Of a stretch of DNA of 64,000 nt, positions 61,577 through 63,751 are shown one piece after another. The notes under the pieces were generated by a model that was given only the letters and a program-made list of their open reading frames with translations, did no database searches and had not been told where the DNA came from. The DNA is taken from the IMG/VR virus record IMGVR_UViG_3300022660_000043; one strand, written 5' to 3'. The stretch comes from a virus. Taxonomy: Duplodnaviria > Caudoviricetes. A program made the translations under genes and the position numbers. Position 1 is the stretch's first letter; each line of letters starts with the position of its first letter.

Positions 61577-63751
61577 TTACGCGGTAGTAAGAGTATGAGT
61601 ATGTGCAGGGCAAGTATGCTCGTCTGTAGTACCAGCAAAAGTTTTTTCTGTGTTCTTTGTACGAGTAACATCAGCAACAACTGCAACATCACCAGTAGTA
61701 GCATTAGCAACAATAGTAGCGTCAGTCATTACATCTTCTGTTACAACAGTACCAAGACCAGTCATAACCTCATCACCGTCACCACCAACACTTATACCAC
61801 CAGTAGCAACTGTAGTTGCAGAAGCTGCCTTAGGTACAGTAACGTTCGAGAAGGTATAAGGAGTAATAGTACCATTCGCAACTGCAGGAATAATAGTCTG
61901 ATCACTAGGCGCTGCCTTTGCAGGAAGAATATTAACCTGATCTGCAGTAACACCATAAATACTTGTATTAGAAGCAACAGCTCCATATATTGTGGATGTA
62001 GCTGCAACAGCAGGAGTAAGAGTCTGTGTGCTAGGAGCTGCAACAGCAGGAGCAATGCTCTTAGTTCTACCAGAATCAACAGCGGGAGTAATTGTCTGAG
62101 TAGAAGGAGCCGCAACAGCAGGAGTAATATCCACAGAACCGCTTACGCCATAGATCTTAGTTGAGCTATCAGAAACTGCCTTAGCAGGAGTAAGAGTCTT
62201 GGTAGAAACAACAGCTGGTGTAAGTGTCTGAGTGGAAGGAGCTGCCTTGGCTGAAGTAACAGTAGTAGTGCCACCTACACCATAAATCTTAGTTTCAGAA
62301 GCAACTGCTCCATAGATAGAAGTTGTAGACTCAGAAGCAGGGGTAATACTAGTATTACCTGTTGTAACAATACGAGGTGTAAGCACAAGAGTTTCTGCAG
62401 TTTCATCAACAGCTGCATGGAACAAGTCAGTCTCTACAGATGATCCTGAAGTTCTTGCAGTATTTGAAAAACTATTAAGTACACTAACAGCGTCACCTAC
62501 ATTTGCGTTACCAACGGTAGTAGCAGAAGATGCAATGTTAGCATTACCTACAGTAGTCTGAGTTGCAGCTCTAGTAGCTACTGTTTTTGAATCACCAACA
62601 TCGGCTTTACCATAAACTACAGCAGTACCAACATCAGCAGTACCATAAGTAACTTCATCACCAACATCCGCATTACCAACTTTAGTTTGTGCAGTAGCTT
62701 GTTTTGCAACGGAAACTGCTGTGCCTACGTTTGCTTTACCATAAACAACAGCTGTGCCAACGTCTGCTTTACCATCTTGAACAGTAATAGCAGTACCTAC
62801 GTTAGCTTTACCATATACAACCGGATCTGCTACATCAGCATTACCAATAATAGTGGCATCGGAAGCAATGTTAGCATTACCTACAGTAGTTGCAGCTGCG
62901 GCTCTCTTTGCTAACCCAGTAACTTCAGTACCTACATCAGCTGTACCATATCTAACAGGAGAACCAGCTTTTGCAACATCTTTAGCAGTTTGAGCAGTAG
63001 CTTTTGAAGCTGTAGTCGAGCCGCTTACACCAGTAATTTGTGTAGTATCTAAATTACCAAAAGTACCAGGAATAGTTTTAAGAACTTTAGCTGTAGTAGG
63101 AGTAACCGAAAGTTTTGTATCTGTATGATTAACTTCTGTTACATAGGTATTTGCAGGAATAGTAGTGGAAGTACTATGATCATGAATAGATCCTCCACCA
63201 GACATAACAGTAATTTCTTTATTAGATCTTACATGACCACACTCATCAATATCAATAGACTTAATAACATTAGTCTCTTGTGCTGTACCAAATCCACTAT
63301 GGCTAATGGTGATATCTCCGGAAAGATCCCCACCGCCGCTCAAGTGGTGGCCAGCGTTTACTTTAATACTCTTCAGTGCATAGCTATCAGCATCACCTAA
63401 AAGCTCCCATGCAGTTCCAGTATAAATATATTCTTCATAATGGGTCTCACCCGTACGTTTATAAAGACAAACGTCTCCAGCATGATAACTGCCACTATGG
63501 CCTGCACAGGTAGCACCAGTAGCGCTTAAAGGATCTGTTGTAGATACGCCAACAAAATGTAATGCAGTATCAAGACCTAAATCAGCAGCAGTAAGTGGGC
63601 TCTTAGAAGTAATATGACCATGTTCATCGAAAGCAATCTTATACGCGCCTTCTTCAGTAATTTCCATCTGCGGATGTGGTACAACCGCATGCATGTCGAC
63701 TAGTTTTTCTAAGCCGGCATAGTCTAAGTATTTCTTATTATTCTGTCCCAT
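61577..63751 (-). CDS. Repeat-rich tail fibre protein
   Basis: KYLDY.GL, FDEHGHIT, YEEYIY...WELLG, LSGGGDLS; G(N/K/T)A(D/N)VG and TPA repeat arms. Confidence 0.75.
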   Translation of the reverse strand: MGQNNKKYLDYAGLEKLVDMHAVVPHPQMEITEEGAYKIAFDEHGHITSKSPLTAADLGLDTALHFVGVSTTDPLSATGATCAGHSGSYHAGDVCLYKRTGETHYEEYIYTGTAWELLGDADSYALKSIKVNAGHHLSGGGDLSGDITISHSGFGTAQETNVIKSIDIDECGHVRSNKEITVMSGGGSIHDHSTSTTIPANTYVTEVNHTDTKLSVTPTTAKVLKTIPGTFGNLDTTQITGVSGSTTASKATAQTAKDVAKAGSPVRYGTADVGTEVTGLAKRAAAATTVGNANIASDATIIGNADVADPVVYGKANVGTAITVQDGKADVGTAVVYGKANVGTAVSVAKQATAQTKVGNADVGDEVTYGTADVGTAVVYGKADVGDSKTVATRAATQTTVGNANIASSATTVGNANVGDAVSVLNSFSNTARTSGSSVETDLFHAAVDETAETLVLTPRIVTTGNTSITPASESTTSIYGAVASETKIYGVGGTTTVTSAKAAPSTQTLTPAVVSTKTLTPAKAVSDSSTKIYGVSGSVDITPAVAAPSTQTITPAVDSGRTKSIAPAVAAPSTQTLTPAVAATSTIYGAVASNTSIYGVTADQVNILPAKAAPSDQTIIPAVANGTITPYTFSNVTVPKAASATTVATGGISVGGDGDEVMTGLGTVVTEDVMTDATIVANATTGDVAVVADVTRTKNTEKTFAGTTDEHTCPAHTHTLTTA

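Follow-up and report, generated by a model that had tools for sequence, protein, structure and literature searches.

An out-and-back chain in a phage fibre is known from gp37 of phage T4, in which D11 is inserted in D10, the stem comprises residues 882-931 on the way out and residues 960-1009 on the way back, i.e., equal arms of 50 amino acids (aa), the tip comprises residues 932-959, and seven Fe ions are situated all along the needle (PMC6957217). This stem is short, metal-stapled, and non-repetitive, and the T4 needle measures approximately 150 Å. Here we describe a putative fibre gene of a virus of the Caudoviricetes (Duplodnaviria; IMG/VR record IMGVR_UViG_3300022660_000043), of which a stretch of 64,000 nucleotides (nt), hereafter the window, was analyzed. 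In the encoded protein, P0001, and its relatives the out-and-back topology seems to be stretched to a needle of up to about 20 levels of paired units ("rungs"), composed of interchangeable, partner-specific units. The chain of P0001 probably folds back as one very long hairpin with about 280 residues each way and matched repeat units on both sides.

The nested out-and-back topology appears to be common to gp37 and P0001, here with arms of equal length, the tip midway through the gene, and the two termini at the base. In comparison to gp37, the arms are 3.5 times longer (177 aa, within a ribbon of about 280 aa per direction) and consist of repeated, typed, and partner-specific units, with approximately 3 to 21 rungs across the family. 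HxH motifs occur in both proteins, at the base only in P0001 (residues 190-192 and 717-719) and along the needle in gp37; between residues 247 and 634 a single His (H445) and no HxH was found, i.e., the arms lack the stem-spaced HxH motifs of gp37.

Two further groups of fibres share single traits with P0001. In gp37, pyocin, and P2 fibres, a single Fe on the three-fold axis is bound by three copies of the HxH motif (PMC6116203). R-type pyocin and P2-type fibres and spikes resemble P0001 in the conserved HxH within a beta-rich fibre, for which metal binding is presumed here, but their shafts are parallel and the receptor-binding domain is C-terminal, unlike the fold-back proposed for P0001. 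Triple-stranded beta-helices such as the T4 gp5C octapeptides and the gp12/gp34 shafts form a thin trimeric rod of short Gly/Val/Thr-rich repeats (PMC3004832). Short, regular Gly/Val/Thr-rich repeats are also found in P0001; in these helices, however, the chains are parallel and run in one direction, whereas the arms of P0001 appear antiparallel and are built from different, complementary sets of units.

Organization of the fibre protein

The gene is composed of the following parts, listed with their positions in the window.

61577..63751, minus strand: whole fibre gene, 724 aa plus stop codon (protein P0001), taken from the list of open reading frames (ORFs) and the translation
63263..63751, minus strand: N-terminal part, residues 1-163, presumed virion-attachment end
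63014..63262, minus strand: base of the outgoing ribbon, residues 164-246, recognized by conservation and by strands mirrored at 887 minus position
63176..63184, minus strand: H190-D-H192, candidate metal site, nearly invariant across 56 homologues
62480..63013, minus strand: N-arm, residues 247-424, 14-16 units of 10-13 aa
62774..62812, minus strand: 13-aa N-arm unit with TVQD insertion, residues 314-326, matched to S(N/G)RT(K/V)S by counts and distance from the tip
62375..62479, minus strand: tip, residues 425-459, a variable N-side bulge of approximately 16 aa followed by a conserved beta-hairpin
61850..62374, minus strand: C-arm, residues 460-634, approximately 16 units of 8-14 aa
62057..62077, minus strand: D-S-G-R-T-K-S, residues 559-565, partner of the TVQD unit, opposite VQDG 324-327
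61580..61849, minus strand: returning base and C-terminus, residues 635-724, recognized by conservation and as mirror of the N-side base
61595..61603, minus strand: H717-T-H719, second candidate metal site, nearly invariant, opposite residues 168-170 in the model register

The N-arm comprises 11 G-x-A-(D/N)-(V/I) units and three to four A-(K/T)-(R/Q)-A units, in good agreement with the approximately 15 units of the type G(N/K/T)A(D/N)(V/I) that had been recognized in an earlier note on this DNA. Four types can be distinguished: G-x-A-(D/N)-V-G-x-x-V-x-Y, GNAN(I/V)A..., A(K/T)(R/Q)A...T.V, and the single 13-aa unit ending with TVQD. In case of the C-arm, for which about 15 different TPA/IYG units had been claimed, approximately 16 were found (TPA, IYG, and AAPSTQT). 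These follow the patterns x-x-S-x-T-x-I-Y-G, A-A-P-S-T-Q-T-(L/I)-T-P-A, and S-T-K-T-L-T-P-A, with the base motif N-G-T-I-T-P-Y-T-F in last position. Both arms are visible as repeats in the DNA with periods of 33 and 36 nt, and each arm contains one larger internal duplication of near-equal spacing, 333 nt for the N-arm and 327 nt for the C-arm.

The central turn previously placed at about 62380-62460 was recovered as well, since the string quoted for it corresponds to residues 434-457 (window 62381-62452). The beta-hairpin of the tip consists of F-H-A-A-V-D (444-449) and T-L-V-L-T-P (454-459), both predicted as strands by AlphaFold with locally higher values of the predicted local distance difference test (pLDDT), and the tip motif of the family is [YF][HN]A...E.L.L. 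The bulge of about 16 aa in front of it varies among subtypes, whereas the hairpin itself is conserved. The outgoing base holds I-T-G-V-S-G-S-T, the start of a base module whose T-A-S-K-A end (247-251) opens the N-arm.

Coupled lengths and mirror order of the arms

A word-indexed search retrieved 273 relatives of 416-842 aa, none of which is named and some of which come from contigs 226-233 kb long. When cluster representatives were searched exhaustively, 359 relatives were retrieved, many of them matching residues 50-180 only. Due to the fact that residues 50-180 are common to hundreds of otherwise different proteins, the N-terminal part is regarded as a general fibre module. A dozen relatives were read, and the layout was identical throughout with very different numbers of units. 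Scanning IMG/VR for related loci yielded three loci only, which were kept out of the statistics. The family is unannotated and stems from large uncultured phages.

Arm lengths were determined between three anchors per protein, i.e., the first T-A-S-K-A, the turn motif, and the last N-G-T-I-T-P-Y-T-F. Among 79 proteins, the N-arm covers 30-244 aa and the C-arm 24-231 aa, and both are tightly correlated (r = 0.978, slope 0.91) with a near-constant difference. Arm length is related neither to the length of the N-terminal domain (r = -0.10) nor to that of the C-terminal domain (r = 0.04). With the turn located by a position-specific scoring matrix, a correlation of r = 0.97 between the arms was obtained for 95 proteins. 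The outliers are accounted for by a miss of the regular expression (P0057), a protein cut at the C-terminus (P0071), and different repeats (P0184 and P0199).

P0184 and P0199 keep the base modules and the turn, with other repeats between them. On the N side, seven to eight units of 16 aa (T-G-T-T-T-F-x-T-x-A-I-K-A-A-E-L) occur, which seem to be partly helical, and on the C side four to five units of 12 aa (S-T-G-T-V-G-I-S-T-T-x-x).

As a control for relatedness, a FastTree phylogeny was calculated for 73 proteins from the 110 aa before and the 85 aa after the arms. P0057 and P0071 were not included, nor were two fragments (P0173 and P0206) and P0002, whose identity to the query is 99%. Between the arms, independent contrasts gave a correlation of 0.98, and the C-arm shared the sign of the N-arm change in all 28 contrasts with N-arm changes of at least 8 aa. 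The coupled gain or loss of units in both arms that the earlier note had predicted for homologues is thus borne out, by correlations of 0.97-0.98 as well as by the common direction of the contrasts and the mirrored placement of paired changes. Arms varying independently of each other, named there as the contrary outcome, were not seen, except for a slack of about one unit at the tip and for P0184 and P0199. Furthermore, the hairpin together with the C-terminus was found behind quite different N-termini, e.g., in P0048, and therefore seems to move as a block.

The coupling extends to the order of the units. In relatives with multiple base modules, T-A-S-K-A and N-G-T-I-T-P-Y-T-F are equal in number, from 1:1 to 4:4. 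In proteins of the 3:3 type, the spacings of the modules are 61 and 50 on the N side and 47-48 and 60-61 on the C side, i.e., mirror-ordered. In comparison to the query, P0019 lacks 21 and 9 aa of the N-arm (66-87 and 47-56 aa from the turn) and 20 and 12 aa of the C-arm (63-83 and 42-54 aa from the turn). Both the 13-aa TVQD unit and, at the mirror point, a 14-aa piece with the SGRTKS unit are missing from P0016, P0025, and P0026. In case of P0008, all additional units adjoin the turn on both sides. TV(Q/D)(D/A)G and S(N/G)RT(K/V)S units occur in equal counts in 49 out of 53 different patterns, the distances of the two motifs to the turn are tightly correlated (r = 0.99, 20 pairs), and 95% are situated within 16 aa of the point predicted by a mirror arrangement, compared to 5% for a parallel one. 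In the query, VQDG 324-327 is located opposite TRGS 563-560 if the two positions sum to 887. Insertion thus meets insertion, as had been proposed for TVQDG and DSGRTKS. No inverted repeat joining the arms was detected in the DNA, only six pairs of 15-24 nt at chance level; the mirror pattern therefore resides in the protein and not in the DNA.

The K-unit and AAPSTQT were also considered as direct partners and rejected, with 66% for the mirror versus 54% for the parallel arrangement; in the model register they are diagonal neighbours and not opposite each other.

The distribution of tyrosines follows the same register. All five N-arm Tyr of the query (268, 313, 337, 369, and 380) are located opposite Tyr-less (S/T)(Q/K)T(L/I)(T/I)P units at a position sum of 887, as the earlier note had stated for the N-arm YG units. 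Its reverse claim, that N-arm GNA units face C-arm IYG units, holds with a minor correction: the C-arm Tyr are indeed opposite Tyr-less N-arm units, but these are either of the GNAN(I)A or of the A-K-x-A type and not GNA units only. Considering 28 representative architectures, 55 out of 76 N-arm Tyr (72%) are exactly opposite the Tyr-less four-residue core (S/T)(Q/K)T(L/I) at a shift of +1, compared to a mean of 14% over all shifts and 31% for the best parallel mapping. Another aromatic residue within 4 residues of the opposite point was observed for only 5 out of 76 aromatics in the N-arm and 5 out of 81 in the C-arm. Independent of any model, the offsets between aromatics of both arms show a trough from -19 to -4, with 16 pairs versus 51 ± 6 expected from 5000 circular-shift permutations of 29 architectures, figures which overstate independence as the architectures are related. 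The model register (-15) lies inside this trough, and parallel coordinates have no trough. The effect is still large and located where three independent lines of evidence put the register.

Structure models and competing explanations

AlphaFold monomer models were inspected for the query and for P0040, a close homologue of 489 aa with short arms. The mean pLDDT is 58 for the query (60-75 in the base) and 69.7 for P0040. In the query, each N-side strand from residue 164 on has a C-side partner at 887 minus position. This includes the strands 164-168, 174-182, 193-198, 204-226, and 229-253 of the outgoing base, which are mirrored by 632-654, 661-684, 689-699, 703-708, and 721-723 of the returning base. 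P0040 shows the same mirror at 669 minus position for residues 182 to 487, with a corresponding tip hairpin (332-337 / 340-345). When all sums were scanned, the overlap of mirrored strands peaked at 886-887 in the query (79% versus a median of 30%) and at 669 in P0040 (77% versus a median of 39%). The anti-diagonal that had been expected of an AlphaFold contact map is hence recovered from the strand assignments, the models giving one antiparallel ribbon from about residue 164 to residue 723. In either model, this sum exceeds that of the N and C anchors by 5-6, so that the register can be transferred to every homologue.

To the repeats, the mirror pairing, and the coupled length changes observed in the family, the two monomer models add the fold-back itself, and the long antiparallel hairpin with complementary Tyr packing suggested in the earlier note is supported by the coupled lengths and the mirror order together with these models. 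In such a hairpin, the chain would leave the N-terminal attachment part, run outward as an extended strand (about residues 164-443), reverse in the conserved beta-hairpin 444-459, and return with residues 460-723. An out-and-back chain would place both termini at one end and the middle of the gene at the far tip. Both runs would be built of units of about 11 residues in fixed partner pairs, the rungs, for which three types are proposed: a Tyr-ending G-x-A-D-V unit opposite a Tyr-less A-A-P-S-T-Q-T-L-T-P unit, a Tyr-less GNAN or A-K-x-A unit opposite an I-Y-G unit, and the 13-aa TVQD unit opposite the SNRTKS unit. According to this scheme, each rung would contain at most one aromatic side chain per chain.

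Several observations weigh against the long hairpin. The pLDDT of the query arms is just about 45, the predicted template modelling score of this model is 0.25, and the pairing of N- and C-side strands was deduced from DSSP strand positions and not from coordinates or a contact map. Moreover, the models are monomers, in which AlphaFold may pair strands within a chain that truly belong to a pairing between chains. Foldseek searches against the PDB (both models) and BFVD (P0040 only) and VIA-align searches against about 48,000 chains (both models) yielded no match above noise to any solved or predicted structure. The only fold matches of the ribbon are long beta-hairpins, i.e., the anthrax PA pore (Z 2.7) and FliF (Z 2.2), and these mean no more than "long hairpin". 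A superposition on 2XGF by Foldseek or VIA-align likewise gave nothing above noise for either model, extended monomer models being poorly alignable. Comparison of the family profile with T4 gp37 by hhalign yielded a probability of 0.65% (E 0.087), i.e., no homology. In three contrasts, the N side changed by about one unit (11-12 aa) and the C side hardly at all, which indicates that the pairing is not absolute near the tip, and in P0184 and P0199 the difference between the arms exceeds that of the other family members by about 60 aa, so that the equal-arm rule is not valid for every repeat type. Finally, the homologues share ancestry, and the tree on which the contrasts were calculated may be blurred by recombination.

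The missing fold matches and the low confidence of the query model in the arms would also fit two independent, consecutive parallel shafts, e.g., two triple beta-helices, with arms of similar length due to ancestry or selection on total length, and most trimeric phage fibres are indeed parallel and built from short repeats. Selection on total length, however, predicts compensation and thus a negative correlation, whereas r = +0.98 was observed. In shafts with repeats running in one direction, distant parts would be uncoupled, but here the arms are mirror-coupled: partner units are placed in mirror positions (95% versus 5%), Tyr face the core in 72% versus at most 31% of cases in parallel mappings, deletions are paired at mirror positions, module spacings are mirror-ordered, and both AlphaFold models pair N- and C-side strands at a constant sum. 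Parallel shafts are thus very improbable. Even less credit, next to none, is given to the idea that DNA structure or repeat dynamics, such as an inverted repeat, antisense coding, or slippage, and not protein packing, gave rise to the mirror pattern as a side effect. Both arms are repetitive in the DNA with the periods given above and are covered by long antisense ORFs, but an inverted repeat joining the arms is absent apart from the six chance-level pairs, unit sequences differ between the arms, slippage would alter a single arm at a time while both change in 28 out of 28 contrasts, and the pairing is specific at the level of residues.

A stronger competitor, although still unlikely, is antiparallel pairing between chains, either as a strand-swapped fold-back needle or as extended chains arranged head to tail without reversal. 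Length covariation and mirror positions cannot separate intra- from inter-chain pairing, and trimeric fibres are usually heavily intertwined, as exemplified by the pyocin fibre (PMC6116203). Against this stands the tight turn of 2-4 residues at the conserved tip motif, which is present in both models with locally higher pLDDT; a tight beta-hairpin at the tip implies a reversal of the chain. Head-to-tail assembly would furthermore produce identical ends, which is odd for a fibre whose N-terminal module is dedicated to attachment and exchanged between relatives (P0048), and the strand-swapped variant would still be a fold-back architecture.

For the long hairpin, gp37 offers the closest structural analogy, since an out-and-back chain, a distal tip insertion, and equal arms were all found, in the models, the arm lengths, and the mirrored insertions and deletions. 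The only sequence overlap with gp37 is an 18-column His box (gp37 928-932) aligned with the terminal G-x-H-x-H (H717-T-H719), which is not significant. Considering a shared topology without homology, P0001 is presumed to work like the gp37 tip without being a member of the gp37 family. Fibres equipped with N-terminal modules of this kind and with HxH motifs are trimeric. By analogy with the gp37 tip, three hairpins may pack into a six-stranded trimeric needle, and metal ions on the three-fold axis may be bound by the two conserved HxH motifs of the base. Host contact would be made by the tip or the adjoining bulge, the bulge of about 16 aa being a guess for the contacting part. A length of 2-3 Å per residue, as estimated from the T4 needle of about 150 Å and the 50-residue arms of the gp37 stem, would give, as a rough estimate, approximately 40-60 nm for the repeat part.

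The length of the fibre, from about 3 to 21 rungs, is presumably tuned by swapping or nesting of central cassettes that carry both arms. It is tempting to speculate on a "rung code", in which few N- and C-units pair specifically and growth occurs by nesting of whole hairpin cassettes, i.e., base, arms, and tip together, into the tip of another. Such nesting would account for the mirror-ordered 2:2, 3:3, and 4:4 copies of TASKA and NGTITPYTF, yet the proposal is tentative and in our view slightly more likely wrong than right. If true, the rung code would be an unusually clear-cut example from nature of insertions and deletions that are obligatorily coupled over long distances, and a ready-made system for fibres of chosen length.

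For genes of this kind, a reading rule follows from the long hairpin, with the tip encoded in the middle of the gene and both ends at the base. The family also represents a natural data set of coupled insertions and deletions hundreds of codons apart, suitable for contact prediction from such events and for studies on repeat evolution under a pairing constraint, and might serve as a scaffold for fibres of defined length in ordinary laboratory work on phage-host systems. No new field is opened, but a known architecture is taken in a surprising direction.

Termini and genomic context

Residues 63-127 or thereabouts of the N-terminal part form a small globular domain in the AlphaFold model (pLDDT 83-92). 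The first D-x-x-G-H-(I/V) motif, part of the fibre-typical Y-K-x-x-x-D-x-x-G-H-(I/V), is located at residues 42-47, and fold matches of this part are weak only and restricted to the N-termini of phage fibres and tailspikes. An insertion hot spot is situated at about residue 100 (window approximately 63450), where many relatives carry 17-20 extra residues and P0010 and P0014 about 120 further residues; insertions at this site are independent of arm length. At the opposite end, the length of the C-terminal part is kept at 86-97 aa in most homologues and does not correlate with arm length. In case of P0027, P0029, P0030, P0055, P0057, P0076, and P0110, 140-148 aa follow the last N-G-T-I-T-P-Y-T-F, i.e., about 50 residues extra.

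Cys171 (63239-63241) and Cys715 (61607-61609) are opposite each other in the model register with a sum of 886 and adjoin H173 and H717, respectively. A link between them was considered and discarded, since P0008 has the C-terminal Cys only, P0019 the N-terminal one only, and other homologues one or neither; due to this lack of co-occurrence, a conserved disulfide or Cys-His site is unlikely.

The source virus record comprises 221,361 bp and is rated as approximately 95% complete. Nearly all genes are encoded on the minus strand, among them genes for topoisomerase II, DNA polymerase, a DnaB-type helicase, and SbcC. Among the genes just downstream of the fibre gene, the one at 57252-58517 shows weak matches to minor tail protein PHROGs. 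For the fibre protein itself, no Pfam family, no PDB sequence match, and no GenBank phage match by tblastn was found. A PHROG search gave just PHROG 7964 and PHROG 5070, both of unknown function and weak (E about 4e-5), with matches confined to the N-arm repeats (residues 276-419); as no single stretch passes alone and the families are unannotated, they are uninformative on the architecture. The nearest neighbours in BFVD and the ESM Atlas are phage fibre-like, all weak and those of the Atlas below threshold. P0001 is encoded by a phage, next to a putative tail gene, and contains an N-terminal module common to other proteins; it is presumably a virion fibre protein, most likely of a tail fibre, of the 221-kb phage.

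The arms are overlain by long ORFs in other frames or on the other strand, at 61595-62164 (plus strand), 62687-62914 (plus strand), and 61792-62115 (minus strand). These are low-complexity products of the codon make-up of the repeats and not genes.

An ORF of 79 aa is located just downstream of the fibre gene (61129-61368, minus strand) and contains the motif P-R-I-K-I-G-D-G...L-P-F. P0048 and P0049 have a similar motif, K-I-G...D-G...L-P-F, as their N-terminus, in place of the usual N-terminal domain and ahead of an otherwise normal hairpin. The recurrence of this motif suggests exchangeable attachment adaptors. On the other side of the fibre gene, the stop codon of a 65-aa ORF (63751-63948, minus strand) overlaps the start of the fibre gene at 63751. 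The N-terminus of this small ORF, I-K-L-G-N-K-T-Y-Q-I-K-D, resembles the start of a 535-aa ORF at 59507-61114, I-R-L-G-G-K-V-Y-D-I-D.

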